A stretch of 64,000 bases of DNA from a virus (lineage: Duplodnaviria; Heunggongvirae; Uroviricota; Caudoviricetes): the IMG/VR virus record IMGVR_UViG_2571042690_000019. One strand, 5' to 3'. A model generated the notes under the pieces. The model was not told the DNA's origin, did no database searches, and was given only the letters and a program-made list of their open reading frames with translations. Below, one piece after another: positions 3,504 to 55,700 of the stretch; the first letter of the stretch is position 1, and each line of letters starts with the position of its first letter. The position numbers and the translations under genes are program-made.

Positions 3504-3540
3504 TTGTGTTAGAAAATACATATTAATTATCTAACACAAA
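3504..3540. promoter_or_regulatory. inverted pair of C1-operator-like half sites upstream of rdgC-dmt
   Basis: tttgtgttagaaaata...ttatctaacacaaa: perfect inverted repeat containing the TTCTAACA core recurring across the window. Confidence 0.45.
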
Positions 3541-3552
3541 TGGGTGCATTTT

Positions 3553-4206
3553 CTATCCTTTCTTGAAATCGAAGTTGCCAGCAGTGGCCTGAAAGGTTCC
3601 CCCAGCCTTGAAAGCTATGTCCCCGTTAGCGGTGACAGCTATATTTTCCCCATTAACATTGATGTTGTTGGCTGATTTGACGTTAACACTCCCTCCTGCA
3701 TTCACGATTACATCAGCCGGACCAATGATATATATCTGCCCGGACTCATTCATGCCAATCCTTGAGCCTGCTGCCGTATTGGCAATTTCATAGCCGCCAC
3801 CAGCAGTTCGTACTTCAAGAATATTGTTGCGGTGAATAACGAAGTCTTTCGTTGCTGAGATTTGGGGGCGGGGAGGTGCTCCATCTACTTCCGGCGGCGT
3901 CCAGCCGTTGCCTTTGCCAGATGCTTCTGGTGCAACGTTTGGAATTCCTCCCGGTGCATCCTGAGCGGCACCAACTATCATTGGGCGTCTGGTGTCTATT
4001 CGACCGTTAACATCTAAATAAGGAAACTCTACCCAGACCAGGTCACCTTTGACTGTAGGTACAAAAGCGTTCCCGATGGGTAACTGGTATTCCGCCCAGG
4101 GTAGATCGTCATCAGGAACGCCATTCCAGTCAGGTAAAACACGGACTTGAGCACGCATAAGCCCTGCCGGGTGCACAGTTCCAACAATTTGCGCTCTACG
4201 CTTCAT
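3553..4206 (-). CDS. putative baseplate central spike / gpV-gp45-like protein
   Basis: 217 aa; N-terminal OB-like region (GDLVWVEFPYLDVNGR) then Gly/Asn-rich repetitive C-terminus typical of spike beta-helices. Family assignment is a by-eye guess. Confidence 0.35.
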   Translation of the reverse strand: MKRRAQIVGTVHPAGLMRAQVRVLPDWNGVPDDDLPWAEYQLPIGNAFVPTVKGDLVWVEFPYLDVNGRIDTRRPMIVGAAQDAPGGIPNVAPEASGKGNGWTPPEVDGAPPRPQISATKDFVIHRNNILEVRTAGGGYEIANTAAGSRIGMNESGQIYIIGPADVIVNAGGSVNVKSANNINVNGENIAVTANGDIAFKAGGTFQATAGNFDFKKG

Positions 4207-5183
4207 TTGTTAGGCACTCCCAATATCATTCGTGTTGTGTAGCCTACGCGGTCCTCAAAGTGCGCAACATTTTTTACTATCAGCTTACGGGGCATTGATT
4301 CATCAATGCGGTTTTCCTGGTCATAGCGGTATACGATAATCTCTATTACCATCCCCGGTTTTATATCAGGATTGCCTGCGACTTCTATATCCATTTTGGG
4401 GACGAGAGACAGCTGCATATTGCGAAGAGTTTCCATATCAGAGTCGGATATATAACGTACTGGGAGTGAGCTATCGCCATATTCGACGTAGCCATCGGTC
4501 ATGGAATACCCAACAAAACGATATTGATTCTTTGCTGTTGTCGCATGTTCCTGTTGGAGTAGGCGCATTTTGGACAAAGTGTATTCTGCTTTAGGGTTAT
4601 TCCCCTCGTAGGTAAATGATGGCGTTTGCTTCATCAGATCAGCCAGGGTGTAAAAGTTAAATTCCCCCCGGCATACCCAACATAATGCACCTTTGTCTCG
4701 CGCTATCTCCGAAAGCATTTTTGACGGTTTGTCACCGGCATTCAGATGATATGTAACTGCGCGTTTTAGCACGCTGCTGGTAATTTTAAGCTTGCCGGAA
4801 TATGCCTTGAATATAGCGTCTGGTGTTTTGTTGGTATGTAAATTTGTGCGCGGGGAGGGGATCTTAAACCTGCGCACGTCTTCACTGACAGCAATAACGG
4901 TAACAACATCACCAGCCAGCATTGCAGACGTAACAAAGAAATCTGTTTTAAAAGTGCCTGCATTACCGTTTGGATCGCCCATTTCAGCCACCAGCGATGC
5001 ACCGTATTTGGCTTTCCAGTCATCAATTACGGTGCCGGTAGCGTCATGAATTTCCAGTTTTAGCAAAGGGGCTTTGAGGCTGGTTTTTTCTACATATACT
5101 GCGGTAAAAATCCAGTCTCGTGGCACTTTGTTATCGTTAATGAGCACTGACTGTAGAAAATATTGTTGTAACTCCTGGGCCAC
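4203..5183 (-). CDS. hypothetical protein (same operon as spike-like gene)
   Basis: 326-aa ORF; stop overlaps downstream start (ATGA-type coupling). Confidence 0.5.
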   Translation of the reverse strand: MAQELQQYFLQSVLINDNKVPRDWIFTAVYVEKTSLKAPLLKLEIHDATGTVIDDWKAKYGASLVAEMGDPNGNAGTFKTDFFVTSAMLAGDVVTVIAVSEDVRRFKIPSPRTNLHTNKTPDAIFKAYSGKLKITSSVLKRAVTYHLNAGDKPSKMLSEIARDKGALCWVCRGEFNFYTLADLMKQTPSFTYEGNNPKAEYTLSKMRLLQQEHATTAKNQYRFVGYSMTDGYVEYGDSSLPVRYISDSDMETLRNMQLSLVPKMDIEVAGNPDIKPGMVIEIIVYRYDQENRIDESMPRKLIVKNVAHFEDRVGYTTRMILGVPNK

Positions 5184-5186
5184 TTA

Positions 5187-5954
5187 TCACCCCATAGATA
5201 TCGAGGTTTCGGTAATAATACGTTTTGCGTCCAACTCCCATGCTGTGATCACGTCTGCAATCACACTTATCGGCGCTTGTGTGGCATAAATACGCTCTTC
5301 TCCAATTGGTGCTGAAACATCCGTAAAGCCGACTTCTTTGGCATCCTGTATCGAGCAAATCAGCGGGACCGGAACACGAACAAGGTGAGTGGTTGCTTCA
5401 AATTGTGTACCTGTCATCAGGCGAAGCCGTGCGCCCAGCGAATTACACATCAGACTCATGGTCGCTTTATCAGTTGCCATTAACGTAACGTCATACGTCA
5501 GAATGGCCTGGGTGTATTCCAGTTCTGCTAAAGGCATTCCGGTATCCGGTTCGCAAAAACTGGCTACTTTTTTGCGGTCAATCTGCTGATCATCGTTGAT
5601 ATAATTGATATCCATAGTGCGTGAGATATTGACCAGGGGGAGAGCATCCCGGTTAATGTTCTGGTTTTCAGGTTTTCTCCCTTGCCCGGCATTTGCGCGA
5701 CGAACTGCTTTAAGAAACTCGATCGCATTGTCGAAACGGGCCACATAGACACGCTCTGCTGGTGGACGATTCAAGAATGACGCAAAGCGTTTTTCTTCCG
5801 GCGCGGGGGCCACCAGTAAGATATCAGAAAAAATGTTGCTGATTAGCGTCGCAAACGCGTTATCCACGTTTTCAAAGCCCGTGGTCTGGAATTTTCCTGT
5901 GCGTGAGGTTTGCCATTCACCTGTTCGCGCCAGGAGGGTTTTATTTGAAGTCAT
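5187..5954 (-). CDS. hypothetical protein
   Basis: 255-aa ORF tightly packed in the same minus-strand operon. Confidence 0.5.
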   Translation of the reverse strand: MTSNKTLLARTGEWQTSRTGKFQTTGFENVDNAFATLISNIFSDILLVAPAPEEKRFASFLNRPPAERVYVARFDNAIEFLKAVRRANAGQGRKPENQNINRDALPLVNISRTMDINYINDDQQIDRKKVASFCEPDTGMPLAELEYTQAILTYDVTLMATDKATMSLMCNSLGARLRLMTGTQFEATTHLVRVPVPLICSIQDAKEVGFTDVSAPIGEERIYATQAPISVIADVITAWELDAKRIITETSISMG

Positions 5955-7207: not shown

Positions 7208-7277
7208 AACAGATACCCGGTTACGGACCGGGTTCTGACCAGAGTCCACTTAATACGCACGCTAGTAAGGGCAAAAA

Positions 7278-7873: not shown

Positions 7874-7894
7874 TAAAAGTAATCAGGATAAGCT

Positions 7895-10172: not shown

Positions 10173-10365
10173 AACAAAGCCTCTCAGTCATAACCTGGGG
10201 GAAACTGTATGCAGGGTGTGAAATGCGAGAAACAGACAGGCCACCAGTTCAGGGGGATGTGGTTCATAAATCCCCTCACTGGTGACAAGTGACTTTCATT
10301 AATCTTTATGCGGGGGCCAGCTTCATTTGCTGGCATTAGATTAAAAATCAAACGGAGTAAATGAC

Positions 10366-11389: not shown

Positions 11390-11407
11390 TGTTTTTATAA
11401 CATAAAA
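11390..11407. promoter_or_regulatory. weak C1-operator-like variant
   Basis: gtttttataacataaaac, one mismatch from the TTTTCTAACATAAAA form; upstream of the secreted-protein gene pair. Confidence 0.25.
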
Positions 11408-14224: not shown

Positions 14225-14400
14225 GCAGCCTCCTTTGACTAAGTTAAGGAGCTACCGCGTGAGGTTCCAATCTCAATGGCGGTAGCACTGACTGGGTTGG
14301 AACTACCGGCGTCAAAGGGAACCGGCCTGCCTTTCGGCAGCCCAGCCAGCACTACCATTGATCTCTGAGCTAAACGCTAAGTATGGCTGTGCGATGGCAT
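14225..14400 (-). ncRNA. candidate c4-like antisense RNA / structured leader (immI module 1)
   Basis: Non-coding stretch with nested hairpins (gctaccgc...gcggtagc; ggcctgcc-tttc-ggcagcc) and GGTTCCAA / TTGGAAC complementary heptamers. Coordinates approximate. Confidence 0.25.
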
Positions 14401-14404: not shown

Positions 14405-14427
14405 CAAAAAAAGACGCGTTCGGCGTC
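14405..14427 (-). terminator. rho-independent terminator (minus strand)
   Basis: Minus-strand RNA gacgccgaacgcgtc followed by U7. Confidence 0.5.
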
Positions 14428-14469
14428 TGTGTCGCCTTTGACATTATCCGGGGTTCCAATCCCGGCACC

Positions 14470-14486
14470 CGTTTTTCTAAGGTGCC
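14470..14486. promoter_or_regulatory. C1-operator-like variant upstream of immI module 1
   Basis: ccgtttttctaaggtgc, TTTTCTAAGG variant of the recurring core. Confidence 0.3.
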
Positions 14487-15020: not shown

Positions 15021-15033
15021 ATGTTAGAAAACT
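15021..15033. promoter_or_regulatory. C1-operator-like site
   Basis: atgttagaaaact (reverse complement AGTTTTCTAACAT) at the 3' end of the ref-like gene. Confidence 0.4.
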
Positions 15034-15610: not shown

Positions 15611-15677
15611 GATGGCAGTCTCTTACTTTTCAACGATTTTTCTATGATTGATCAAAATGGTTAGATATTCAAAATTG

Positions 15678-15695
15678 ATTTTCTAACATAAAACA
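15678..15695. promoter_or_regulatory. C1-operator-like site in divergent promoter region (ref / 15856 operon)
   Basis: gattttctaacataaaac. Confidence 0.45.
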
Positions 15696-21983: not shown

Positions 21984-22685
21984 GTGGATCAAAAAATGAA
22001 AGAACGCGGGATGATTTTTAACGATGAGATGGTCAGGGCCATCCTCGAAGGAAGGAAGACGCAGACTCGCCGACCTGTAAAAAATGTCAGGGCCGATAAC
22101 TGCCTGGTTATCCGTAAACCGACAAAGAAACGCAATGGTATCTATACCCACGTTATGGATGCACCTGAACATGGTTTATGCCCGTTCGGTAACGTTGGTG
22201 ATCGCATATGGGTCCGTGAGGCGTGGGCGATATTAGGCAATGAGGATGGTTGCAGTGTGGACTGGAACGACAACCTTTGTCGTGGCGATGAGAAGAACGC
22301 AGCAAGGATTTATCGGGCCAGTTGTGAGCAAAAGCCGGGTGATTACGGCTTGTGGTCGATACCCGATGATGCCGACTGGAAACCTCACACTGTGAATGAA
22401 AAATTTGATGGCGGGTGGTGTCCATCAATTCACATGCCGCGCTGGGCATCGCGCATTCTTCTGGAAATTACCAACGTGCGCGTTGAGCGGTTGAACGATA
22501 TCAGCGAATGCGATGCAAGGGCTGAGGGCGCACCAACAGAATCGACCCTCATTGGCGATAAGCATTACCCAAGTTTCCGTAGCCTATGGAAATCAATTTA
22601 TGGCGAAGATAGTTGGAACGCTAATCCTTGGGTGTGGGTAATCGAGTTTAAGCGTATTCAGGGGGCAACCAGTGAGCAAAATTAA
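21984..22685 (+). CDS. putative ASCH-like domain protein
   Basis: 233 aa; N-terminal MIFNDEMVRAILEGRKTQTRRP resembles the ASCH signature from memory; tentative. Confidence 0.35.
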   Translation: MDQKMKERGMIFNDEMVRAILEGRKTQTRRPVKNVRADNCLVIRKPTKKRNGIYTHVMDAPEHGLCPFGNVGDRIWVREAWAILGNEDGCSVDWNDNLCRGDEKNAARIYRASCEQKPGDYGLWSIPDDADWKPHTVNEKFDGGWCPSIHMPRWASRILLEITNVRVERLNDISECDARAEGAPTESTLIGDKHYPSFRSLWKSIYGEDSWNANPWVWVIEFKRIQGATSEQN

Positions 22686-31850: not shown

Positions 31851-31870
31851 GATGTGTTAGAATTTTAATT
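31851..31870. promoter_or_regulatory. C1-operator-like site between cre and downstream operon
   Basis: gatgtgttagaattttaatt. Confidence 0.4.
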
Positions 31871-32898
31871 TACGAATCCATCAGGCGGCTATTAGCCCCC
31901 ACAGACACGCCGCCACGGCGAAGATACCGCATAAGTGTTTCCGGTTTCTTCCAGGTTCCTTCCTGCATGATCTCCACCATAGACACCTGCTTTTCAGCCA
32001 TATCAATAGCGGCCCCGACGCGTGCACTATGCCCAGTCCACGTCCGGTATCTTCCTTTGTTTGGCGTAGCATCTCTTTTATTCAGCAACACCCAGGCGTC
32101 GCTGAATATTTTCTCCATTGCAGGTGCAGTAAGGGGCGTTGTCGTAATCCTGGCCTTATTGCTACGGTGTATCGGCGGGAACAGCACCGCGTCAGGATGT
32201 TCACGAAGCCCGGAAACATCCAGCCAGTCATTCAGCACAGCAGTAGTGCGACGGGAAAGCACCTTATCAAGCCCGGCGGCGGTCGTTATTGTCTTCGTGT
32301 GTGAAATATGTAGCGTGACAGTGTCACCTGTTTGGTCCAGATCTCCTACACGAATACGCGAGATTTCCGACATACGCATCAGCGTATTGTATGCAACAAA
32401 GAGAAAAGCCCGGTTGCGCTGGTCCACCAGCCGTTCTGACCTGGACAGCAGGACGTCGAGCAGTTTCAGGTCGTCCCACCGCAACGGTATAGCCTGGCCT
32501 GTTCGCTCGCCTTTTTCCGTTGCCGCTTCACGCCGGATGCGCCGCATGGCCAGAGACACACTTTTATCGTCCGACAGCGGCGGGAGGCCACATTGCGAAA
32601 GCAGCATGTTAAGCATGGCATAGTGCTTATCAATGGTGGTCGAAGCCAGATCAGCATCATGCAGCTGAAGAAAATACTCGCGGGCCATCTCTGGTGAGAT
32701 CGGGAACCAGGCGAGCTGGCGAGCGTGACACCATCTCGCCCAGGAGTGAAACACTAACCGGAGATCGCGCAAAGTATTCGGCGCGTAAGCCCCCTGGTCA
32801 TTCATGAACCGCATAAAGTTTTCTGCGGCCTCCTGGTACTCTTTGCCAATGTTGCGCAGAAAACCACCGGAGCTGCCAGAGATAATTAATTTACTCAT
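31870..32898 (-). CDS. cre: Cre-like tyrosine recombinase
   Basis: 342 aa (P1 Cre is 343 from memory); aligns by eye along its length (WFPISPEMAREYF, AVSLAMRRIRRE, AYNTLMRMSEISRIRVGDL, GHSARVGAAIDMA, catalytic-Tyr region TLMRYLR). Confidence 0.8.
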   Translation of the reverse strand: MSKLIISGSSGGFLRNIGKEYQEAAENFMRFMNDQGAYAPNTLRDLRLVFHSWARWCHARQLAWFPISPEMAREYFLQLHDADLASTTIDKHYAMLNMLLSQCGLPPLSDDKSVSLAMRRIRREAATEKGERTGQAIPLRWDDLKLLDVLLSRSERLVDQRNRAFLFVAYNTLMRMSEISRIRVGDLDQTGDTVTLHISHTKTITTAAGLDKVLSRRTTAVLNDWLDVSGLREHPDAVLFPPIHRSNKARITTTPLTAPAMEKIFSDAWVLLNKRDATPNKGRYRTWTGHSARVGAAIDMAEKQVSMVEIMQEGTWKKPETLMRYLRRGGVSVGANSRLMDS

Positions 32899-33049: not shown

Positions 33050-33083
33050 CTAACTTTAAATAATGCCAATTATTTAAAGTTAT
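33050..33083. other. lox-like recombination site (13-bp inverted arms, 8-bp asymmetric spacer)
   Basis: cTAACTTTAAATA-ATGCCAAT-TATTTAAAGTTAT; arms match at 12 of 13 positions; compare loxP ATAACTTCGTATA-GCATACAT-TATACGAAGTTAT; about 150 bp upstream of cre. Confidence 0.6.
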
Positions 33084-33180: not shown

Positions 33181-33197
33181 GTTTTCTAAAATTGATG
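33181..33197. promoter_or_regulatory. C1-operator-like variant
   Basis: gttttctaaaattgatg, TTCTAAAA variant. Confidence 0.25.
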
Positions 33198-33259
33198 ACA
33201 AAAAATCACAGTTCGATCCTTTACTCACTCTGTTATTCGACATAAATTTGTCATAGTAA

Positions 33260-33280
33260 TTTTATGTTAGAAAACTAAAT
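33260..33280. promoter_or_regulatory. C1-operator-like site overlapping promoter of 33293 gene
   Basis: ttttatgttagaaaactaaat. Confidence 0.45.
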
Positions 33281-33292: not shown

Positions 33293-34330
33293 ATGAGTAA
33301 GAAGTCGATCGAGAAAGAGTACAAACGGTTCCTGCAAACCGCTGAACGGTGGAAAGAGCTGGTGGTCGCAAACTCTGTTTTCCATGATACCAGTTATGCT
33401 GGCGAGGAATTCCGCCATGTTGCATTAACGCATGACCAAAACATATTAGAAGAAGCTGAAAAATGTCTTGCTGAATGGAAAGCCTTCGTTGACATGTGCC
33501 GCGATGCCGACGGCAAAGCGTCGAACATTGTTGAGTCTGTATATTCTCCGATCCCATTCATCATTGAGGACACCAATCAAAGCACGCATGTCGTTGTGCA
33601 AAGCGCTACAACAACACGTACATTTACACGTGAACAATTGCTAAAAAAATACGACAAAATCATAAAGAAAAGCCTTAAAAATAGGGTTTTTTCTCAAATC
33701 GTAGGTGATCTTGAAGAAGAACAGCGCTTCTTTGAAGCTGAGCCTGAAGGCGAGATCTACCGGGCGCGTAAAGAGGCATATACAGATGTTGTGCTGACAA
33801 CAAACATCGAAGGCAGCAATGCCCTTTCTCGCTTTAGAGTTGGCGCACATGGTGCATTGGTTTTCGCAAGACTACCGAAGACAACGATCCCCGTTGTCAA
33901 TAATGTTGGTGAACGCCGGAGCATTACAATTTATTCTGGCGTCGAATCGGTACCTTGCAGCCTTCTCGGCGATTTTAACTTATATCGTGTTCGTGACCTG
34001 GAAAAACACCAGCCAAGCTATGTTGCGAAGTCGTACATCTTAAGGAACATCGATATTCGCAATGAAAGCCTTAAGCAGAAATCCGCTAAGATGCTGGAGG
34101 ATGCCGATCCGGCTATTCGCCATATCATTGAGCGTAAGATACGTACATCACGTGAAGCAATGGCAAGGCTGGATAAAATGGATCTGGAATTGTTAGACGT
34201 AATGATGGCCTCTGGAGACGACCTGACCGGCATTAAACTGAATGAAGCTCGTAAAAAATACGGCAAAGCAATCGAAGAACGTTACGGATACACATTCCCC
34301 CAAACGCAGTACGCCGCGAAGCTCTGGTAA
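33293..34330 (+). CDS. hypothetical protein; candidate primary repressor (C1-like) by position only
   Basis: 345-aa ORF with an operator in its own promoter, divergent from cre/lox and convergent with pacB, as c1 is in P1. No sequence-level recognition. Confidence 0.3.
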   Translation: MSKKSIEKEYKRFLQTAERWKELVVANSVFHDTSYAGEEFRHVALTHDQNILEEAEKCLAEWKAFVDMCRDADGKASNIVESVYSPIPFIIEDTNQSTHVVVQSATTTRTFTREQLLKKYDKIIKKSLKNRVFSQIVGDLEEEQRFFEAEPEGEIYRARKEAYTDVVLTTNIEGSNALSRFRVGAHGALVFARLPKTTIPVVNNVGERRSITIYSGVESVPCSLLGDFNLYRVRDLEKHQPSYVAKSYILRNIDIRNESLKQKSAKMLEDADPAIRHIIERKIRTSREAMARLDKMDLELLDVMMASGDDLTGIKLNEARKKYGKAIEERYGYTFPQTQYAAKLW

Positions 34331-34357: not shown

Positions 34358-35866
34358 TTATATATCCAGATCCGGCATTTCGATATCCGCCAGAACCTGA
34401 TCTCGGAAAGTTGCCATTTCGGCACCAATATCTTCATTAGCAGGCACATAGTCCACCAGCATAGTGAAGCAGTAGGTATCCCATCGGTCAGGCGATTTGA
34501 TGTTTAGCTTTTGCCGCATGTGCTCTTTGCGCATCATCGCCATTTTCCCTTCTTCATTCAGTAAAAAGGGGATTTTTGACGCTTGCTCTGCCGTTTTAGG
34601 GTCACTGTCTATCCGCATACGCCCTGACTTTATGGCATCACGCGCCATAATGTTTGCGTAGGCACGCTGATTAACAAATCGCTCCCTGTCTTTGTTCGCA
34701 AACATGGGTTTTCCCCACCGAATACGTACCGGGTTCGCACCACGACGCACCAACTGCGCACACGTATCAGAACCAAAACCATCAGCATCAACCGCGATTG
34801 TTATATTCGGGTATTTTTCCGGCGTACATTCGTTATATATGAAGTCAGCAAAGGCCAATGGGTCCATAGTGCCAGGCATCTCCATTACCTTAAAGTTAAC
34901 AACGCGCCGCTTATCCCTGTGACCTGATACCTTGCAGATGTTGAGGACCGACTTATCTCGCCCATTACCAACGTCAGCCGTTGCCACCCATCCCCAGTTT
35001 TTCTCCAACAACACCTTGCGGCGAGCAGAGCGATCGCATTCATCACGACCAAGCAAATAGCCGTTAATTTCTCGTGGGAACTGACCAAGCACCTTGACCA
35101 TGTACTCAATAGAATCGCGCCCACCATATTCCAGAAGCTTCTCCTTGATGAATTGTGGTGTGACGAACGGTGATTCTTCCGAGTTAAGAACAATTGCTGT
35201 CCAGATCCCTTTCGGGTTGTCTGGGGTTTTTGCTCGAGAATGGTGCGAATCGTAGAAATAACCACTTGGCCTTGTTGGCTGGGATAGCATCAACATCCGG
35301 TTATCTTCTTCAGTAAGAGCACCGGTCATTACGCCGATCGCCTTATCAGATATACCAGATGCTTCATCCAGAATTAGAAGCAAATGTGCCGCGTGTTCCC
35401 CCGCCAGCGCTTCTTCGTTGCCGAGTCGATAACCTTTGCAGAGAACTTCCCAAATCCCCTTACGGGAGCGCTCATAAAACATGGTGTCAGAGAGGACAAA
35501 ATAGGTCTGCAACCACCCATGACGCTTAACTGCATTCGCCCAATACTGTTTAACGTATTTGAATACGCCTGTTTTTACCTGGCCTATCTTGTTAGCAACA
35601 ATGATGACACGGGCATCGGGGAACAGGATCATAAAAATCAACAGCAACATCGCGGTAAGGGACGACTTCCCCGTTCCGTGTCCGGACGTGACGGTCGTCC
35701 TACTCCCCGTTTCCTGCACTGACTGAATGATCTGCTGCTGCTGGTGGGAGGGGAACATCCCAAAAATATCGACTACAGCCTGGGTAAAGTTGTAGCGGTA
35801 TTTGATTACCATATCGCGCCAGCGTGGATCGCTGGTGACGCATTTAATCTTGCGCCCGCCAGCCAT
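34358..35866 (-). CDS. pacB: terminase large subunit
   Basis: 502 aa; Walker A GHGTGKSSL, Walker B LILDEASG; directly downstream of pacA. Confidence 0.7.
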   Translation of the reverse strand: MAGGRKIKCVTSDPRWRDMVIKYRYNFTQAVVDIFGMFPSHQQQQIIQSVQETGSRTTVTSGHGTGKSSLTAMLLLIFMILFPDARVIIVANKIGQVKTGVFKYVKQYWANAVKRHGWLQTYFVLSDTMFYERSRKGIWEVLCKGYRLGNEEALAGEHAAHLLLILDEASGISDKAIGVMTGALTEEDNRMLMLSQPTRPSGYFYDSHHSRAKTPDNPKGIWTAIVLNSEESPFVTPQFIKEKLLEYGGRDSIEYMVKVLGQFPREINGYLLGRDECDRSARRKVLLEKNWGWVATADVGNGRDKSVLNICKVSGHRDKRRVVNFKVMEMPGTMDPLAFADFIYNECTPEKYPNITIAVDADGFGSDTCAQLVRRGANPVRIRWGKPMFANKDRERFVNQRAYANIMARDAIKSGRMRIDSDPKTAEQASKIPFLLNEEGKMAMMRKEHMRQKLNIKSPDRWDTYCFTMLVDYVPANEDIGAEMATFRDQVLADIEMPDLDI

Positions 35867-37230
35867 TAATCATCCTCCGGCGGTTCTATCGCGATATCAT
35901 CATCTCCGGCGTCATACCCTGCATCAGATGCATCATAATCACCGTAAATTTCAGCCGTTGCCGAAGGGTCAATATCCAGCTCTTCGTCGTTGGCCTCGAA
36001 TTCTCCAGCTTTACGCTCGCCATTGCGGTCGTAATCTCCGCACCCCAATTCTTCAACAATGGTTGCCACATCCGCCCGGCGCTCTGCCAGCCATTGCGGA
36101 TGGTTAGCCTGAAGCGTTGCAAACTCCCTTGCCTCTTTGTCCAGCTGTTCATCATCAACATCATTGACGTCAGAAACAGGTGGTTCGAGAAGAGTGATAG
36201 CTTTCGCCGCGCGCGCCGCGAGGATAGCCGGGACGCTGACACCCTGGCGCTCGATGTATTCAGCAACACCGATATCATCCAGTTCCTCGCGCTCACGCAT
36301 ACGTATAGCGGCGGCGATAACTCTGGCTGCGCGTGCGTCAGCGCCAATGCGATATTCAATCTCTTTGCCACGCTGTTCGGCCTGTAGGCGTGCTAATTCG
36401 AGTTTTTCTCTGGCCTCAGCCTCTTTGAATGCTTGCTGGCGAGCGCTCTGACGAAGCTTTTCATCCCCCTGTCGCAGCTTTTGTTCGGACTGATATATAG
36501 CTGCCAACCTACTGATAAAATCATTCATGTAGTAGGCCGCGTCACTGATTAGACCGAGAAGGCGCTGCCCAGGGTGCATTCCTTCTGGCTCTTTATCGCC
36601 CAAGGCGTCTATTTCCGCCTGTAGACGTTCGGCCTCCTGATCAACAATGCTTTGATACTGAAGTGCGCGCTCTTGCGCCATTTGAATTGCTAACCGCAGG
36701 TGTTCTTCTGCGCCGTTCTTCATCATATCGCGAGCCACATTCGTAGTTGGCAATGTGGCACGCTGCACAGCACCGTCAGGGATCATTGCAGAAGATCCCT
36801 CAATTTTTGGGGCGTTTTTATCTTCTTCGGGGATCATTTTCGCCATTTTTTCGCGCAATGATCTCCTGACAGATTCTTTTATCTCATTGTTATTATTTGA
36901 ATTATTTTCATGATCCGAAGTTTTCTTTCTCGGCATACTTCGGAAAGAACCTGCGCCCTGCGAATTGTCAATTTCTGTAAATTTTGTTTTTTCTGCACCC
37001 TCTTCCAGCTTTTTTGTTGCTCTTCCCGCCCGTTTTTTTTCAGGTGATTTGGTGCTTTTTTTTGTTGTCTTTACCTGCGACCGCACCTCATTTTTTTTCA
37101 TATTGAGATGCTTTCTGGCTGTATTGAAGCTAAGGCCATGCTCCTCACAGTATTCCTTTACAGTGATCCCTTTTTCTTCACGCAACGCTATAAAGCGGGC
37201 GCGGTGCTCCTCCCAATTAACCAGACTCAT
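35866..37230 (-). CDS. pacA: terminase small subunit / pac-recognition protein
   Basis: 454 aa; N-terminal HTH-like region, long charged middle, acidic tail; position upstream of pacB; contains a GATC cluster. Confidence 0.55.
   Translation of the reverse strand: MSLVNWEEHRARFIALREEKGITVKEYCEEHGLSFNTARKHLNMKKNEVRSQVKTTKKSTKSPEKKRAGRATKKLEEGAEKTKFTEIDNSQGAGSFRSMPRKKTSDHENNSNNNNEIKESVRRSLREKMAKMIPEEDKNAPKIEGSSAMIPDGAVQRATLPTTNVARDMMKNGAEEHLRLAIQMAQERALQYQSIVDQEAERLQAEIDALGDKEPEGMHPGQRLLGLISDAAYYMNDFISRLAAIYQSEQKLRQGDEKLRQSARQQAFKEAEAREKLELARLQAEQRGKEIEYRIGADARAARVIAAAIRMREREELDDIGVAEYIERQGVSVPAILAARAAKAITLLEPPVSDVNDVDDEQLDKEAREFATLQANHPQWLAERRADVATIVEELGCGDYDRNGERKAGEFEANDEELDIDPSATAEIYGDYDASDAGYDAGDDDIAIEPPEDD
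36781..36915. other. candidate pac site (GATC-hexamer cluster inside pacA)
   Basis: Five GATC within 135 bp, each in a TGATC(C/T) hexamer on one strand or the other; P1 pac is a TGATC(A/G) hexamer cluster inside pacA, from memory. Confidence 0.25.
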
Positions 37231-37696: not shown

Positions 37697-37728
37697 GTAT
37701 TAGAAAATTAATACTAAATATCTAATGC
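37697..37728. promoter_or_regulatory. weak C1-operator-like pair
   Basis: tgtattagaaaattaatactaaatatctaatgc, with ATTAGAAAA / ATCTAAT half-sites. Confidence 0.3.
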
Positions 37729-39149: not shown

Positions 39150-39225
39150 TGGTGGCCCCTACCGGACTTGAACCGGTGACCGTGCGATTATGAGTCGCCA
39201 GCTCTAACCACTGAGCTAAGGGGCC
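39150..39225 (-). tRNA. tRNA with CAU anticodon (Ile2-lysidine type, or Met)
   Basis: Minus-strand GGCCCCTTAGCTCAGTGGTTAGAGCTGGCGACTCATAATCGC...GGTTCAAGTCCGGTAGGGGCCACCA; close to E. coli ileX from memory. Confidence 0.85.
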
Positions 39226-39236
39226 AATTAGTTTTT

Positions 39237-39350
39237 ATTTTCGACGCCTGAGATTCTTCGCTACTTGTTCTACTCCGTATACGATCACAAGCAGAAATAG
39301 CAAAGACCATCCAGGGTTCTTATCAATATACGTCCAAAAATCCATCATGA
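39237..39350 (-). CDS. tiny membrane peptide (about 37 aa)
   Basis: MMDFWTYIDKNPGWSLLFLLVIVYGVEQVAKNLRRRK; below ORF-track cutoff. Confidence 0.25.
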
Positions 39351-39509
39351 GTTCCTGAACGCAGCTTTAATAATCGGCAATAGCAATACCACAGCTACTG
39401 AAACCAGTGCCCCATCAGCCAACACCGACATCACTTTGCTGGTGAAATCCACCAGCACGGACAAAACGAGAAAACCAATGGCGCACGCAATACGCGCCTT
39501 GCCAATCAT
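39346..39509 (-). CDS. small membrane peptide (54 aa)
   Basis: MIGKARIACAIGFLVLSVLVDFTSKVMSVLADGALVSVAVVLLLPIIKAAFRNS; ATG overlaps the TerB-like stop. Confidence 0.3.
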
Positions 39510-39943
39510 TACAGATAATCTTCCACACGAAGGCCCAAACGACGGCCTACTTCTTCCAGTACTTTGTGTTCTGCTGGCTCGATTTCACCGTCCGCTTCTG
39601 CAATCGTCAGCATGTTAACGAATACTTCTTCCGCTTCTTTTGGATCATTTTTGATATCTTCAATTTCGCGAAGGATATTCATGCGACCAACACGGAAACC
39701 AGCTTCCAGTTGCTCAGTAAAACGGGTGATTGTTGCGGTAATTTCGTTGCCAAAATGACTTAAGCGAGGATTAGAGCGGACAAGCTGATCAAGTTTCGCT
39801 GTTTCTTCCTTTTCGATTTCACCATCTGCGGCAGACACCAACAAACAGCCACCGATAATGGCCTCCATCAGATCGCGATTCTCAACCCTTTTCAGCTCTA
39901 CTTTTGCTGAAGCGACTTTCTTACCGAAAAATTTACCGAACAT
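39509..39943 (-). CDS. TerB-like tellurite-resistance-family protein (TciA-like)
   Basis: 144 aa with the paired-helix acidic pattern of TerB (LLVSAADGEIEKEE...LTIAEADGEIEPAE). Confidence 0.55.
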   Translation of the reverse strand: MFGKFFGKKVASAKVELKRVENRDLMEAIIGGCLLVSAADGEIEKEETAKLDQLVRSNPRLSHFGNEITATITRFTEQLEAGFRVGRMNILREIEDIKNDPKEAEEVFVNMLTIAEADGEIEPAEHKVLEEVGRRLGLRVEDYL

Positions 39944-40098
39944 TGGTTATCCCTCAATAAACATGACGTATTTATTAGGTTGCGGTGCCTGGTGCCTCCA
40001 GGTGACGTTAACCAGTTAACAATTAACGCCGGGATGTTTGACTTAACCACTAAGGAGGATTGTTTTAACTGTTCCGCGTGCGCATAGCCGCATTCACC

Positions 40099-40208
40099 GC
40101 AATGGTAAGAGCACTTGGCTGGCTGGGCGGCGATGACGCCTGTACGCATTTGGTGATCCGGTTCTGCTTCCGGCATTCGCTTAATTAGCCAAATACTCTT
40201 AACGTTGC
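40099..40208. repeat. long-stem hairpin element (family copy 2)
   Basis: Arms gcaatggtaagagcacttgg / ccaaatactcttaacgttgc, about 20 bp with a few mismatches, about 70-nt interior. Confidence 0.4.
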
Positions 40209-40210
40209 AC

Positions 40211-40297
40211 TGGCGGAGAGTAATGGAATCGAACCATCATCGCTTGCGCAATGGGACGGTTTTCAAGACCGTTTGAGCACCATGCTCCCTACTCTCC
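40211..40297 (-). tRNA. non-canonical class-II tRNA-like gene, anticodon UGA (Ser-like)
   Basis: 7-bp acceptor GGAGAGT/ACTCTCC, discriminator G, CCA; anticodon arm ACGGT-CTTGAAA-ACCGT; long variable arm with GCAA tetraloop; T arm TTCGATT; D arm unusually short. Confidence 0.35.
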
Positions 40298-40399
40298 AGT
40301 GATTGTGATGGTCGGTGCTGAACTCCGACACAGGGTTGTAGCAAGCCCCGCAAAGCGCGCACTACTGTAGTTGCGGCACATCAGCCTGTGCATTCACCA

Positions 40400-40488
40400 C
40401 AATGTTGAGAACACTGGTTGTCACGCTGCAACGCAACATTTATTCGTAGATTGGGATATGACCCCGTTACGCCAGTGTTCTCAACGTT
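40400..40488. repeat. long-stem hairpin element (family copy 3)
   Basis: Arms caatgttgagaacactgg / ccagtgttctcaacgtt, 17 bp; interior about 54 nt. Confidence 0.4.
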
Positions 40489-40630
40489 ATAGTGCCGGTT
40501 ACGGTTCCGGCCAGGCCTCTTCCTCAACGGGGTGTTCTCCATACGGACTACCGTTTATTGGTCGTTCCTGCGGTTTATGTTGTGAAGCCAGATGCTTATC
40601 TTCTGGTTGCTTCAAAGAGCTGCACTTCAT

Positions 40631-40698
40631 CACAACGGTAAGAGCACTCGATGCATTTAAGCCAAGCCCCATAAGGGAGAATGCCCTTACCTGTTGTG
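40631..40698. repeat. long-stem hairpin element (family copy 4)
   Basis: Arms cacaacggtaagagca / tgcccttacctgttgtg with a one-base bulge. Confidence 0.4.
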
Positions 40699-40826
40699 TT
40701 GTGATGACCGGTGCTGATCTCCGGCTTGCGGTTATTTCAGACTCTCACGGGCGTTTAATTGCCCCGCCGAACAGCTCTTTTCCGCAATAGCTGCAATGTC
40801 TTTCGCGCATCAGCCTGCGCATTCAT

Positions 40827-40913
40827 CACAACGGTAAGGGTACTTCGTAGGGATTCGAACCCTCTGCCAAGCTCGGCGATCTCCGACGTCGCAAAATACC
40901 CTTACCTGTTGTG
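40827..40913. repeat. long-stem hairpin / tRNA-like remnant (family copy 5)
   Basis: Arms cacaacggtaagggta / tacccttacctgttgtg; interior has a T-arm-like gggattcgaaccc and a D-arm-like hairpin but no anticodon arm; abuts tRNA-Thr. Confidence 0.4.
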
Positions 40914-40914
40914 C

Positions 40915-40990
40915 TGGTGCCGATTAACGGACTCGAACCGCTGACATCCTGCTTACAAGGCAGGCGCTCTACCAACTGAGCTAAACCGGC
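40915..40990 (-). tRNA. tRNA-Thr (anticodon UGU)
   Basis: Minus-strand GCCGGTTTAGCTCAGTTGGTAGAGCGCCTGCCTTGTAAGCAGG...GGTTCGAGTCCGTTAATCGGCACCA. Confidence 0.9.
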
Positions 40991-40992
40991 AT

Positions 40993-41068
40993 TGGCGATG
41001 GTGGATGGATTTGAACCATCGACCCGTTGATTAACAGTCAACCGCTCTAACCGCTGAGCTACACCATC
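40993..41068 (-). tRNA. tRNA-Asn (anticodon GUU)
   Basis: Minus-strand GATGGTGTAGCTCAGCGGTTAGAGCGGTTGACTGTTAATCAAC...GGTTCAAATCCATCCACCATCGCCA. Confidence 0.9.
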
Positions 41069-41267
41069 ACTTGCCGGGTACGTCTCCGGCGAGGGCTTCC
41101 ACCTCCGTATGCTTTTCGGCGCACCGCGCCCTGGGTGCAATTCGGTAACAGGGGATGCACAACCCTGGCTTCCAGCGTGATTAGCGCCTTCAGCATGACG
41201 GGATATACCCGTAGTAGGATGTTATCCCAGAAAGCCATTAACCAATGGCTGTTACGCGGGAGGGACG

Positions 41268-41344
41268 TAACAGGTAAGGGCGCTGACCAGAAAGACCTGA
41301 CCCTTCTCATTCATCTGGTTAATCACACCAGCGCCCTTGCCTGT
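41268..41344. repeat. long-stem hairpin element (family copy 6)
   Basis: Arms aacaggtaagggcgctg / cagcgcccttgcctgtt, 17 bp with one mismatch. Confidence 0.4.
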
Positions 41345-41524
41345 TATGCCTCCCCGTTCCCTAATACACAGACGGGGACACTCTGCGGTCGATTTTTTGA
41401 CGGGGGACGACTCATACCCCGTGGCGTCAGGCTTCTTAGGCCGCTACCATCATCAGATCATCGTTTGCATTTACTTTAATGGTCGGGTTCTAAACCGCCG
41501 CAAAGTCGCTAACCATGACGAAAA

Positions 41525-41552
41525 CCCTAAAAAAGCCCACCCGAAGATGGGC
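41525..41552 (-). terminator. rho-independent terminator (minus strand)
   Basis: Minus-strand RNA gcccatcttcgggtgggc followed by U6. Confidence 0.4.
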
Positions 41553-41571
41553 AAATACGCTACATCTCACA

Positions 41572-41650
41572 CAAGAAAGAAGCCGACTGCCTGAGCTGGA
41601 TTCACTTTCAAATGCCCGCTGAAAGGGATCACAAGTCGGCTTCTTTCTTG
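41572..41650. other. perfect 17-bp-stem hairpin in non-coding region
   Basis: caagaaagaagccgact ... agtcggcttctttcttg with a 45-nt loop. Confidence 0.5.
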
Positions 41651-42132
41651 ATGCGGCACTCTCTCCGCCCGTCACCGCTCTGTCTCGGTTGTCGCGTTTG
41701 CCACGCCAGCCGTAACGAGGTTTAAAGTCTTTGCACGTTTCCATCACTCGACTGCCGTCTGTGGCTGTTCGTTGCAGCGGGGGTGCCTCCCCCTGGGGAT
41801 ATCCCCGGCCTTACCCCATTCTTTCAAGACACAATGCAAGGCCACATCCGCATAGGTGCATTACCGCAACATTAAGGAGACTCAGGGCAAAAGGTAACCG
41901 CCACAAAAATCCCTATGCCTCCTTAATGTTGAAGATGTGCATTGATGATTAGATGCAGCATGTACCGTTACTCTCTGCCGGACCATCATCAATGAACACC
42001 TTAAAAAGACCTTCCGTGGCTCAACATGTATTGTCGTTTACTCCGCAAAGTGCTCTCTCTGAAACCACTTTCCGCACTAAACCTGTTGAACTTTGGTCTG
42101 CTCGGTGCCAAAGCGTGCTCTTGGTTTACTAT

Positions 42133-42153
42133 ACTTTTCTAACACTTTAATTT
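42133..42153. promoter_or_regulatory. C1-operator-like site
   Basis: acttttctaacactttaattt. Confidence 0.4.
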
Positions 42154-42288
42154 GTTAATTGCTGGTGGGCATACAATAACCAATAAGTGACTATCAAGCC
42201 CAGCAAGCGAAACGTGGGTACCGCCCACCAGCAAGGAAAATTCTATGTTAAGTCATCTTCACAATCAATACATTCAAATTGTGATTTT

Positions 42289-42308
42289 AGATTTCTAACA
42301 CATTATTT
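42289..42308. promoter_or_regulatory. C1-operator-like site
   Basis: agatttctaacacattattt. Confidence 0.4.
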
Positions 42309-43525: not shown

Positions 43526-43549
43526 CTTTGTTAAATTATTTTTCTAACA
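43526..43549. promoter_or_regulatory. C1-operator-like site in promoter of 42303..43511
   Basis: attatttttctaacatatattatt, 15-35 bp upstream of the start codon. Confidence 0.45.
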
Positions 43550-43624
43550 TATATTATTAGTTTGATGACAGTATCGAAAGATGCAATAAACAAAAAACCC
43601 GCTAATTGGCGGGTTTTTATGCAA

Positions 43625-44135: not shown

Positions 44136-44630
44136 TTAATCAAGACAAACATACTCCGTGATAGCTTTTATGGCTTCAGCGGCACTGCGCGCCTCAAAGC
44201 AGTAGTAACCGGCTTCTGTGAGGCGAGTCATCCAGACGAGTTGTTCGGGAGTCAGGCGATTTCTCCCATGTTTCATCTCAATGCGCATTCCGTGGTATCC
44301 CCCACAAGCAAGGTCTATAGAAAGATCGGGATATCCCTTCTTTTGGCCCTCTGCCACCATTTTTATTGCCGTCCTTATGCCTCGCAGGCCACCGTTTGGA
44401 GTGGCGTGAGTATGCTCATACACATAACGCATATTGCGATACATCCAGTCCAGGACGCGAACCTGCTCGTAATGCTCATGGTTCCTTTTGATTAGATCTG
44501 GGTTTTTCTCCAGTTCTCTAAGAGCTGCGGCATGTGGGGATGTTTCAGAATATTCACTGCGACGCCTTCTCTTTCGCGCTATTTTTCTAACACACCCATT
44601 GATAGTAAATATGCGAAATAATAACAACAA
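44136..44630 (-). CDS. VRR-NUC-like nuclease domain protein
   Basis: C-terminal GYPDLSIDLACGGYHGMRIEMKHGRNRLTPEQLVWMTRLTEAGYY resembles VRR-NUC; an operator-like site lies inside the annotated N-terminus, so the true start may be a downstream Met. Confidence 0.45.
   Translation of the reverse strand: MLLLFRIFTINGCVRKIARKRRRRSEYSETSPHAAALRELEKNPDLIKRNHEHYEQVRVLDWMYRNMRYVYEHTHATPNGGLRGIRTAIKMVAEGQKKGYPDLSIDLACGGYHGMRIEMKHGRNRLTPEQLVWMTRLTEAGYYCFEARSAAEAIKAITEYVCLD
44581..44598. promoter_or_regulatory. C1-operator-like site
   Basis: atttttctaacacaccca. Confidence 0.4.
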
Positions 44631-44766: not shown

Positions 44767-45027
44767 TTAAAGGGTTATTTTATCCTGTTCGGATAATTCT
44801 TTGATTGTCTTGTCGATTGCGATCAACCAACCTTCATAGGTTAAATCATCAACAAGTTCTACCAACTTATCATCGGTGTGAGGAAAGTATATCCAGCTCC
44901 AGTTCGCAGGGTTTTCTGCTTTTCGCAGCGTAAAAACCTTCTTGTATCGGTGGAACTCAAGGATATACCCCTTCGATATGGAATATTCCTTTAGGTCTTC
45001 GACCGTAAACCTACGATTCTTTCGCAT
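44767..45027 (-). CDS. hypothetical small protein
   Basis: 86-aa ORF. Confidence 0.4.
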   Translation of the reverse strand: MRKNRRFTVEDLKEYSISKGYILEFHRYKKVFTLRKAENPANWSWIYFPHTDDKLVELVDDLTYEGWLIAIDKTIKELSEQDKITL

Positions 45028-52974: not shown

Positions 52975-53006
52975 AAAAAGCCCCGGCCTGGCCGGGGCAT
53001 CACGCT

Positions 53007-53207
53007 TCAAGTCACGATCCAATCATTACCGACTATATCAGCCGTCGATAAATCAACTTCCCGGATCTGGAGTCCATTAATACAAAACCATCCGGTAGTA
53101 GAGTAATTATCAGGCCAGGCCCATACACCAACACTCCATGCTTTACGGCGGCACACTTCAGCCTGTCCTTCCCTGATTTTTTTTACCGCCTGCATGATGT
53201 CCATCAC
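53007..53207 (-). CDS. small protein downstream of antirepressor 2
   Basis: 66 aa; homologous to the C-terminal segment fused onto the module-1 antirepressor. Confidence 0.4.
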   Translation of the reverse strand: MMDIMQAVKKIREGQAEVCRRKAWSVGVWAWPDNYSTTGWFCINGLQIREVDLSTADIVGNDWIVT

Positions 53208-53956: not shown

Positions 53957-54135
53957 GGATTAGTGTTTGGTTGTGGGGAAGTAGAGAAACGACCAGTAAG
54001 AACACCATGCTGATCAGGGATCAGAGAACGGGCTTCTTTTTCGGTTGCGGCAATTGCGAAGTGATCGCAGTGTTTTTGCAGGGAGTGGAAACGCCAGATG
54101 AATTCTGGACGTGAGCAAGGATTGGCATTAACCAT
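53911..54135 (-). CDS. Icd-like small protein (immI module 2)
   Basis: 74 aa, overlaps antirepressor start by 46 bp; paralog of 14005..14220. Confidence 0.45.
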   Translation of the reverse strand: MVNANPCSRPEFIWRFHSLQKHCDHFAIAATEKEARSLIPDQHGVLTGRFSTSPQPNTNPWYRNITNPGIAEAH

Positions 54136-54139
54136 AGTT

Positions 54140-54420
54140 ACGGCCTCACTAACAGGTTTAACAACCTGCTACCCGCTGTCAAACAGGTGGCAGGACGTGA
54201 CAGGGTTGACAGACTGGCGTTAGTGAAACCAGCAGGCCGAAGCCTCCCCATCACGCCCCACCATAATTCGGGCGTAACGTGGTTTACGGACACAAAAATA
54301 CCGCAATATCGGAAATCTGCGGTTGTCCGCACTAACATTCAGGCTGTCAAACCTGGTCGCAGAATTTGCTACGACGGCATGAATATAAGCCTGAAAACAT
54401 GGAAGATCAACTAAAAATTT
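54140..54420 (-). ncRNA. candidate c4-like antisense RNA / structured leader (immI module 2)
   Basis: Non-coding stretch with TTGACAG and complementary CTGTCAA heptamers at 54177, 54206 and 54344. Coordinates approximate. Confidence 0.25.
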
Positions 54421-54482
54421 CAGCAATGGATGACTTCAGTCGATGATGCAGATCATACATTCCGATTTAGAAACAGCAAATT

Positions 54483-54500
54483 AATTTTCTAACATAAATC
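54483..54500. promoter_or_regulatory. C1-operator-like site upstream of immI module 2
   Basis: aattttctaacataaatc. Confidence 0.45.
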
Positions 54501-54548
54501 ATCGAGCGGGCATTTTCCGATCATTGGGATGCTTTGTAGACACACAGG

Positions 54549-55511
54549 TCATCCCCTAAAGCCCGCCGGGATTGACCAATCCTCACGGTCAAATTCAGAC
54601 CGATAGCCACGCTGTTTCATCAGGTCAAAGGCTTCACCAATGGTTGCACACCCCTGGGAGCCAGAATAATCCATTGAGAAATCCAGGGCACTGGATTGTT
54701 TAGGCTTATTCACTGCGGTAGCGGCACTACGTATCCATGCAAATTTTTTTGCCAGCTTTTCAGCGGTACGATACAGAGCCTGCCGTTTTGCGTGCCCCTC
54801 GTCTGAACGACGCTTTGCAGCTCTCGCTTTTGCCGCCGCCAGGCAGTGGTTGGTATGTTCTTCCCTGATTACTGGTTTTTTATCCAGCACCCCATTATCC
54901 GCTTGAGAACTATCTGCTGGTGAAGCCTTTGGCTGAACCGCGCATGATCTTTCTCTTCTTTTTGCTATAGAGTGACTCTTATTTTCTATTGGCTGTTCAT
55001 TTTGAACATGGGGGGGCTTGTTCAATTTGAACAGGGGGTTCCCAGTTTCAAAAAAATAACGAACCTTTGAAATCAACTGCTTAACCAGTTTTGTGGCGTT
55101 GGCAAATTTGATGCCCTGCTTACCCCCTATCTCCATTGCTACATGAATGAAGTGGAGAAATTGTGTCGTAAACCGATATACGTTACACACCTGGGCATTG
55201 TTATTCGCTACCTGATGTTGCTTAACAAGCATTCCGCACTTCGTCGCTTCAGCAAATGCCCTGCGCACAGTAGAAATACTGCGTCCTGTAATCTCGGACA
55301 TATCAGCATATGAGCGACGGATCATGTATTCATCGGTAGCCCCTGCCAGGTTGGCGAACTCGGCAATAATGGCGCTATGTGAAGGGGAAAGAAGACCGCT
55401 ATGACGGGCAAAAAAACTCAACTGATGACCTTTGATTTTTTTGTGGTATTCAGTGTTGTTTTTATACTCAGAAGTGTTGAAAGTTACTGAAACTGAATTT
55501 AAAATACTCAC
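54549..55511 (-). CDS. HTH DNA-binding protein, possibly replication initiator (RepL-like)
   Basis: 320 aa; HTH-like ITGRSISTVRRAFAEATKCGMLVK; operator-controlled promoter upstream; RepL assignment is a guess. Confidence 0.3.
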   Translation of the reverse strand: MSILNSVSVTFNTSEYKNNTEYHKKIKGHQLSFFARHSGLLSPSHSAIIAEFANLAGATDEYMIRRSYADMSEITGRSISTVRRAFAEATKCGMLVKQHQVANNNAQVCNVYRFTTQFLHFIHVAMEIGGKQGIKFANATKLVKQLISKVRYFFETGNPLFKLNKPPHVQNEQPIENKSHSIAKRRERSCAVQPKASPADSSQADNGVLDKKPVIREEHTNHCLAAAKARAAKRRSDEGHAKRQALYRTAEKLAKKFAWIRSAATAVNKPKQSSALDFSMDYSGSQGCATIGEAFDLMKQRGYRSEFDREDWSIPAGFRG

Positions 55512-55681
55512 CAGATAGTTCCGTGAAAAAATCTATCTACCGTATAAATCTATGCCAGTGGATTTATACACCAAAAAGCCGCTTCTCAGCGGCTTTTGCT
55601 TTTTTTGGCAGTCGCTACCGGAGCAGTGACCGCGATCCTACTCGATCCCATCCACCAGGATCAACAGTGTATATAAATACA

Positions 55682-55700
55682 CTATGTTAGAAATTTAACT
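55682..55700. promoter_or_regulatory. C1-operator-like site
   Basis: ctatgttagaaatttaact. Confidence 0.4.

Follow-up and report, generated by a model that had tools for sequence, protein, structure and literature searches.

Dispersed operator-like sites and a member of the P1 C1 repressor family in a phage D6-like plasmid prophage

Phage D6 is a distant relative of P1 and lives as a plasmid prophage. From the classical literature, the C1 repressor of P1 is known to bind asymmetric 17-bp sites as a monomer. Here we analyse a stretch of 64,000 nucleotides from the virus record IMGVR_UViG_2571042690_000019 (this whole stretch is called the window), which by nucleotide comparison is a D6-like, P1-related plasmid prophage, and describe a dispersed family of sites that are very probably operators bound by the D6-type C1 repressor, the product of 33293..34330. 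Escherichia phage D6 shows 95-99% nucleotide identity to the window across most of its length, and ∼90 plasmids of E. coli and Salmonella, roughly 90 kb each, match it at 98-99%. Gene names were taken from the D6 annotation (MF356679, AY753669); these GenBank records annotate c1, rox and dre, while operator features are absent from them.

The kind of system, P1 immC, is well known: P1 C1 binds 22 dispersed asymmetric 17-bp operators (PMC8546580). The window holds an ordinary relative of this system, one with a different DNA word as its target; the repressor gene is already annotated in D6. Common to both are many dispersed asymmetric operators with monovalent and bivalent sites mixed, an autoregulatory site upstream of c1, and an immI antirepressor with a C4 antisense RNA under operator control. 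The 'stoperator' sites of gp71, the repressor of mycobacteriophages L5 and L1, are asymmetric, 13 bp long and strictly oriented, and act as roadblocks inside transcription units. The concept of a single repressor with dozens of asymmetric sites genome-wide is the same there (cf. the abstract of PMC1934351), but gp71 is a helix-turn-helix protein unrelated to C1, and the sites of the window are intergenic and of mixed orientation.

A recurrent asymmetric motif and its inverted pairs

A sequence-only reading of the window had proposed about 15 dispersed operator-like sites between 3504 and 55700, and 14 strong sites are found over the matching range. The 12-mer given in that reading has 13 matches with at most one mismatch, compared to 0.72 expected, and TTTTCTAACA is present in nine exact copies, compared to 0.14 expected from dinucleotide-preserving shuffles, none of 100 of which reached nine. 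Alignment of the sites yields a longer asymmetric motif, A-w-w-T-T-A-r-TTTTCTAACA-y-A, which spans ∼19 bp and has no internal symmetry. With a 19-column matrix the window contains 17 matches above 12 bits (0.96 expected), and the 14 strong sites score at least 20 bits (range 20-30), with cores starting at 3507-, 3527+, 15022-, 15679+, 20932+, 31855-, 33265-, 37698-, 42135+, 42291+, 43540+, 44583+, 54485+ and 55685-. A similar density of the motif inside coding DNA, which would speak against a regulon, was not observed: 13 of the 14 strong sites lie entirely outside open reading frames (ORFs) of at least 80 aa, in the 14% of the window that is non-coding (binomial p ∼1e-10), and coding DNA holds only three weak matches (10-12 bits). 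The exception, 44583, falls within the first 48 nt of an ORF with a TTG start, whose start codon is doubtful.

To find inverted pairs, all offsets behind each strong site were scored on the opposite strand (background -33 +/- 10). A partner half-site occurs at an offset of exactly 20 bp and at no other, giving four pairs; the existence of such pairs had been recognized from the letters, but their number had been put at three. Both half-sites are strong in the pair 3507/3527; in 15659/15679, 20912/20932 and 37698/37718 one half-site is strong and its partner weak. The layout of the bivalent operator is TGTTAGAAAA-N10-TTTTCTAACA, and the same register recurs at other strong/strong positions in related plasmids (5938/5958 in L005 and 28100/28120 in L007). 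In all, the register is seen in four genomes. The geometry differs from that of P1: in the window the half-sites of a pair diverge, their 10-nt cores being separated by 10 bp and their TCTAA centres by 22 bp, whereas the bivalent operators of P1 (Obanab, Oc1ab) consist of convergent 17-mers that share 6 bp and have a distance of 11 bp between TCTAA centres. Since 22 bp correspond to about two helical turns, divergent half-sites at this distance would place two C1 molecules on one face of the DNA. An alignment to the P1 operator in reverse orientation, which would keep a P1-like pair geometry, was rejected, as the invariant TCTAA of P1 would then face non-conserved D6 positions and a third clade also keeps TCTAA.

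The motif could instead be a promoter element for RNA polymerase and a phage factor, such as a late box of the Lpa type or a conserved spacer or -10 region. Several sites are indeed located between -35-like and -10-like hexamers, and TAACAT can be read as a -10 element; promoter-like hexamers overlap or adjoin 43540, 44583, 15022 and 20932, and these are weak. However, a promoter element must follow the direction of transcription, while the sites have mixed orientation and form four palindromic pairs; they precede lpa itself and early or regulatory genes rather than structural late operons; and the orthologous positions in P1 are experimentally defined C1 operators. Moreover, the box of the P1 late promoters, AAGTGACTT, differs from the motif and is not enriched in the window. 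We consider a promoter element very unlikely. The lack of enrichment of the P1 late box suggests that the D6-type Lpa probably reads another sequence. The exact P1 late-promoter -22 box (ACAAGTGACTT) has a single match, at 10285..10295 on the plus strand, between gene 26 and mat.

The C1 homologue and the change of motif between clades

The order of genes around c1 is as follows:

31870..32898, minus strand, dre
∼33051-33082, rox
33293..34330, plus strand, c1, prophage repressor of 345 aa, 99.7% identical to D6 c1
34358..35866, minus strand, pacB
35866..37230, minus strand, pacA

The position of c1 beside a Cre-type recombinase gene and its site, convergent with pacA-pacB, is common to the window and P1. 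In the D6 annotation c1 (gene 1) is a 'prophage repressor, similar to P1 C1'. By BLASTP the 345-aa protein is 21% identical to P1 C1 over 268 aa (E 1e-8, colinear), both belong to phrog_1678 (E 5e-170 and 3e-140), and the precomputed Pfam family PF27008, 'Phage_P7_repressor_C1', is assigned to the cluster of the window protein and to all relatives; a Pfam scan with a model set that lacks PF27008 gave no match. Judged by this homology, the product of 33293..34330, which had been singled out as repressor candidate by position, is a D6-type member of the P1/P7 C1 family. It carries ∼60 extra C-terminal residues compared to P1 C1. A tblastn search against a phage collection found D6 only, at a sensitivity too low to reach P1, while among plasmids 149 records carry this C1 family, in identity classes of >=99%, ∼89%, 80%, ∼69% and ∼30% or less. 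In D6 and the window the operators are at equivalent places.

The P1 consensus ATTGCTCTAATAAATTT, given correctly in the sequence-only reading, was confirmed on 20 operators annotated as protein_bind features of P1 (AF234172). That the window motif resembles this consensus without being identical also holds: no match to ATTGCTCTAATAAATTT exists in the window within 3 mismatches, and only TCTAA and the AT-rich 3' flank are in common, the word of the window being TTTTCTAACAyA with a conserved 5' extension AwwTTAr. This absence of P1-consensus matches places the prophage in a specificity (immunity) class different from that of P1/P7-immune members.

The same word follows C1 through its closer relatives. 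TTTCTAACA is present at syntenic positions in plasmids whose C1 is 90 (L006), 80 (L007) and 70% (L005) identical, and in metagenomic contigs with C1 at 51 (L012) and 44% (L013) identity. Plasmids of Citrobacter (L009, NZ_CP099368) and Leclercia (L008, NZ_CP042508), with C1 at 29-30% identity, contain no TTTCTAACA site; instead, wTCTAAGG is found at eight or more equivalent syntenic positions: it precedes rdgC, c1, lpa and pmgM, flanks pmgS on both sides, follows the recombinase gene, and also occurs at ref and beside pro. P1 operators at equivalent positions carry GCTCTAATA. Anchored on TCTAA, the classes are ATTGC-TCTAA-TA in P1, AaTTT-TCTAA-CA in the D6 type (40 sites, four genomes) and aat-TCTAA-GG in the third clade; TCTAA is, by this alignment, the shared core with clade-specific flanks. 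The specificity of the C1 family thus appears to reside in the bases flanking TCTAA (GC..TA in P1, TT..CA in the window, (a/t)T..GG in the third clade), in agreement with the proposal of a related repressor with altered specificity. Such a change of word across an entire regulon, in step with the repressor clade and with positions unchanged, argues strongly for a repressor-operator system.

In view of this, we consider it extremely unlikely that the repeats are functionless, as duplicated promoter remnants or a by-product of AT-rich intergenic DNA would be. Intergenic regions and motif are both AT-rich, but this composition gives 0.14 copies in dinucleotide-preserving shuffles where nine are observed, the core is invariant while the flanks diverge, the 20-bp pair register is conserved, and the full set switches its word at equivalent positions in another clade. 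Conservation has effectively refuted this explanation already.

Alternatively, the sites may be real but bound by another protein, such as an Xre/HigA-like or a small DNA-binding protein of an early operon, or IHF or Fis. The support for binding by C1 is comparative, and nearly all proteins diverge between the motif clades. Yet the invariant TCTAA and the AT-rich 3' flank are shared with proven C1 operators, the orthologous positions are occupied, including the one directly upstream of c1, and a C1 family member is present in every genome with a TCTAA-type regulon. The consensus of IHF is WATCAANNNNTTR, which the motif does not resemble. Another binding protein therefore seems quite unlikely.

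Several observations count against assigning the sites to the D6-type C1, the reading we favour. The support for it is entirely comparative, and since most proteins, and not C1 alone, diverge between the clades, the joint change of motif and clade does not by itself single out C1. Relative to the downstream gene the sites have mixed orientations, ∼7 being co-directional with it and 5-6 opposed; 44583 is located within an annotated ORF; and 42135 and 42291 have no clear target, a terminator-like hairpin and ∼1 kb without a recognizable gene or RNA family lying between them and the tRNA genes. The sigma-70-like promoters near the sites are weak, too weak to show how an operator would block RNA polymerase, and promoter-like matches do not exceed those in shuffles. 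Finally, P1 Coi, Lxc, ImcA and ImcB gave nothing at E<0.01 by tblastn against the window. In P1 the corepressor Lxc (82 aa) is encoded directly after ulx. The window has at this place orf13 (86 aa, 44767..45027, minus strand, phrog_6844), which shows no similarity to Lxc and belongs to a different PHROG; it may be a positional analogue of Lxc.

Candidate operators and the operons they precede

Eleven types of operon preceded by sites in the window have annotated C1 operators in P1 as well. The P1/P7 sites compared were Oref, Omat, Ossb, Oc4, OrepL, Orlf, Odmt, Oban, O26, Oppp, OpmgR, OpmgT, Olpa and Oc1a-e, and the P1 homology of window genes, lpa, repL and pmgT among them, was checked by tblastn. 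Shared positions are those before hrdC-dmt, ref, immI, repL, lpa, c1, pmgS, pmgM, pmgT and the tRNA-tci region. The orientation of the sites towards the regulated gene, mixed in the window, is mostly co-directional in P1. The candidate operators and associated features are:

3505..3538, bivalent operator, halves 3507-3516 (minus, 23.4 bits) and 3527-3536 (plus, 26.5 bits); 14-43 nt upstream of rdgC(hrdC)-dmt (minus strand); P1 positional counterpart Odmt; kept in D6
11393..11402, plus strand, doubtful weak site TTTTATAACA, 9.9 bits (12.5 bits in D6); between mat (minus) and simB (plus); by score alone indistinguishable from chance
14275-14362, minus strand, C4 RNA of immI module 2 (77 bits), with isrK at 14407-14485 (Rfam)
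15022..15031, minus strand, monovalent operator, 27.3 bits; upstream of immI module 2 (small ORFs, a1b1/isrK, C4 RNA, icd, ant; minus strand); P1 counterpart Oc4
15659..15688, bivalent operator, weak 15659 (minus, 7.6 bits) and strong 15679 (plus, 27.0 bits); between divergent ref (minus) and the orf88-to-ppp operon (plus); P1 counterparts Oref and Oppp; both halves strong in L005
20912..20941, bivalent operator, weak 20912 (minus, 13.1 bits) and strong 20932 (plus, 28.6 bits); between ppp and pdcB-pmgT (plus); P1 counterpart OpmgT
21984..22685, PmgT homologue (tblastn against P1)
31855..31864, minus strand, monovalent operator, 22.0 bits; between the dre stop codon and the orf117-orf116-dut-orf114-isaA operon (minus strand); kept in D6, L005-L007, L012 and L013
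33182..33191, plus strand, distal c1 site TTTTCTAAAA, 7.1 bits; convergent with the proximal site, 83 bp off
33265..33274, minus strand, proximal c1 operator, 27.3 bits; 19 nt upstream of the c1 ATG; P1 counterpart Oc1a-e
37698..37727, bivalent operator, strong 37698 (minus, 24.8 bits) and weak 37718 (plus, 9.7 bits); ∼80 nt upstream of lpa, the late-promoter activator gene (minus strand); P1 counterpart Olpa
42135..42144, plus strand, operator-like site, 20.2 bits; in a 1.2-kb gene-free region between the pmgS stop and the tRNA cluster; kept in D6 and relatives
42291..42300, plus strand, operator, 26.2 bits; just downstream of the pmgS stop; P1 positional counterpart Oban; strong/strong bivalent in L007 (28100/28120)
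43540..43549, plus strand, operator, 28.6 bits; 29 nt upstream of pmgS (minus strand); P1 counterpart OpmgRa/b
44583..44592, plus strand, operator, 21.0 bits; in the 5' region of pmgM (VRR-NUC; minus-strand promoter-like site upstream); P1 counterpart O26 (upstream of pmgL-pmgM)
54183-54268, C4 RNA of immI module 1, with c4-a1b1 at 54336-54388 (Rfam)
54485..54494, plus strand, operator, 30.1 bits; directly after the repL stop codon and upstream of immI module 1 (a1b1, C4 RNA, icd, ant; minus strand); P1 counterpart Oc4
55685..55694, minus strand, operator, 26.2 bits; upstream of repL, the lytic replication initiator gene (minus strand); P1 counterpart OrepL/Op53

The genes named as neighbours in the sequence-only reading were correct, except that the 402-aa gene (pmgS) is followed, not preceded, by 42135 and 42291, which belong to the region equivalent to Oban. 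Both immI modules were confirmed by Rfam, with C4 antisense RNAs (77 and 69 bits) and a1b1/isrK target regions; in each, the C4/target region is followed by icd and then the antirepressor gene. P1 has one such module compared to two in the window. P1 also has Omat upstream of mat, where the window has only the doubtful site at 11393, and while P1 Ossb precedes ssb-isaA, the site at 31855 precedes an operon ending in isaA.

At c1, the proximal site is invariant in 5 genomes whose flanks have diverged, and in the distal site the TTTTCTAA core is likewise kept in 5 genomes with diverged flanks; L012 has a complete TTTTCTAACA as its distal site, at 84 bp from the proximal one. The spacing of 83-84 bp between the two convergent sites (33182..33274 in the window, 9884..9977 in L012), ∼8 helical turns, is kept across diverged genomes and suggests cooperative binding or looping in autoregulation.

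The sites 42291 and 42135 are located upstream, on the minus strand, of tRNA-Asn/Thr/Ser, tciA, tciB and tRNA(CAT), and P1 Obanab precedes the same tRNA-tci order. The stretch 41069-42300 contains no Rfam family and no credible ORF. A strong terminator-like hairpin is present in it at 41552-41535 (minus strand), and 41069..42300 may be an unannotated, C1-controlled non-coding transcript. The four tRNA genes (Asn, Thr, Ser, Met/CAT; 39150..41068) are all on the minus strand according to ARAGORN and Rfam and run in the direction of tciA-tciB, an arrangement also found in the P1 ban operon; in the D6 GenBank record (L002 6084..7850) three of these tRNAs are given on the plus strand and the CAT tRNA is left out.

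On the other side of pmgS, 43540 is in the spacer of a plus-strand sigma-70-like promoter (TTGTTA-16-TATATT, 43528-43555). This promoter faces a bidirectional terminator ∼60 nt away and is antisense to the end of pmgR (43528..43618), where a short C1-controlled antisense RNA may be produced. Further on, 44583 is downstream of a minus-strand sigma-70-like promoter (TTTACA-16-TATTAT, 44645-44618). The annotated TTG start of pmgM (44630) is inside or upstream of this promoter-like site and has no ribosome-binding site, with 44583 falling among its first 16 codons; this start has probably been called wrongly.

Some further observations concern D6 and the window as a whole. D6 has an extra strong operator at 54208 (8208 of L003), upstream of orf52 and adjoining the major capsid gene, at a place outside the range of the window. 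The dmt gene (316..2610, minus strand) is one ORF of 764 aa, as in P1, and is split into adenine and cytosine methylases in the D6 record. The Chi sequence (GCTGGTGG) occurs in 44 copies in the whole window, on both strands, compared to 1.9 expected; P1 shows a similar Chi enrichment.

What we observe is that the sites exist, how far they exceed chance, where they lie and how they are conserved, together with the homology of the repressor and the change of motif along with the repressor clade; from this we infer that C1 binds the sites physically and represses transcription, each half-site taking one C1 monomer. On this reading, the C1 of a lysogen would occupy ∼14 dispersed asymmetric sites of ∼19 bp at or next to the promoters of early and regulatory operons, and hold off rdgC-dmt, ref, orf88-to-ppp, pdcB-pmgT, dut-isaA, lpa, pmgS, pmgM, repL, both immI modules and c1. 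This would shut down lytic replication (repL), transcription of late genes (lpa) and the synthesis of antirepressors, while c1 would be autoregulated via its two sites 83 bp apart. Induction or superinfection would proceed, by analogy to P1, via the immI antirepressors, which are kept in check by the C4 RNAs (PMC8546580).

Predicted fold of C1 and implications

A sequence search with C1 against the PDB found no relative. An AlphaFold2 model of C1 built from 22 family members reached a pLDDT of 86, and in a Foldseek search of this model against the PDB four Tus-Ter entries (1ECR, 4XR0-2) were retrieved at E 4e-8 to 2.5e-6 over ∼272 columns, followed by noise from E 0.12. The TM-scores between the C1 model and Tus are low (0.32-0.38), and a fold search of BFVD with the model gave nothing. 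At the sequence level neither phmmer nor hmmsearch matched C1 to Tus, and the Tus family PF05472 does not match C1; hhalign with the C1 profile gave a probability of 12.7% against a single Tus sequence, and 68.5% (E 4.6e-5, 118 columns) against a diverse Tus profile. The latter alignment pairs the C1 strand with the invariant R157 and R159 with the Tus strand K-I-K-R-P-V-K-V-Q. The P1 C1 protein itself (P0011), modelled from its single sequence, reached a pLDDT of 44.7, which is unusable.

The D6-type C1 is thus predicted to share the Tus fold. Tus is a monomer that clamps the asymmetric Ter site of ∼21 bp and causes polar arrest of replication forks in Enterobacterales. To our knowledge it has so far been an orphan fold, largely confined to this order. 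The C1 repressors of P1-like and D6-like phage-plasmids could be diverged homologues of Tus that read their operators as Tus reads Ter, one monomer clamping the DNA with its central beta-sheet; because the TM-scores are low and the evidence is computational only, we rate this homology at about even, with a slight lean towards doubt. The functions differ, Tus being a replication fork barrier and C1 a transcriptional repressor with many sites. The hexamer TATGTT is common to the reverse complement of the D6-type operator (TATGTTAGAAAA) and the Ter core (TATGTTGTAAC), which we note as a lead only. An arrangement in which the operators flanking repL/oriL face it as a fork trap was considered and rejected, as OrepL and Orlf of P1 are not arranged so.

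Among the papers searched, none links Tus and C1. A full-text search also did not find the operator motif, but the D6 papers (Gilcrease and Casjens 2018; Sauer and McDermott 2004) were outside it, so that an earlier description is possible. Specialists might find three points new: the TCTAA specificity code across the family, the flipped geometry of the bivalent sites and the Tus-like fold.

Phage-plasmids of the D6 type are common in E. coli, Salmonella and Shigella, and the operator word lets their immunity groups be predicted. It also maps the part of the genome that is under control of lysogeny, including the dut-isaA operon and the tRNA-tci region. With at least three specificity classes sharing the TCTAA core, the family offers a natural 'specificity code' for repressors without a solved structure, and, as a complement to Cre/Dre, orthogonal repressor/operator pairs for use in engineering. 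Confirmation of the Tus-like fold would account for monomeric binding of C1 to asymmetric sites and would link a classic phage repressor to a replication-termination protein. If the two are homologous, Tus would gain relatives on mobile elements of the same hosts, which would point to descent of one from the other, and C1-operator complexes might act as polar roadblocks.

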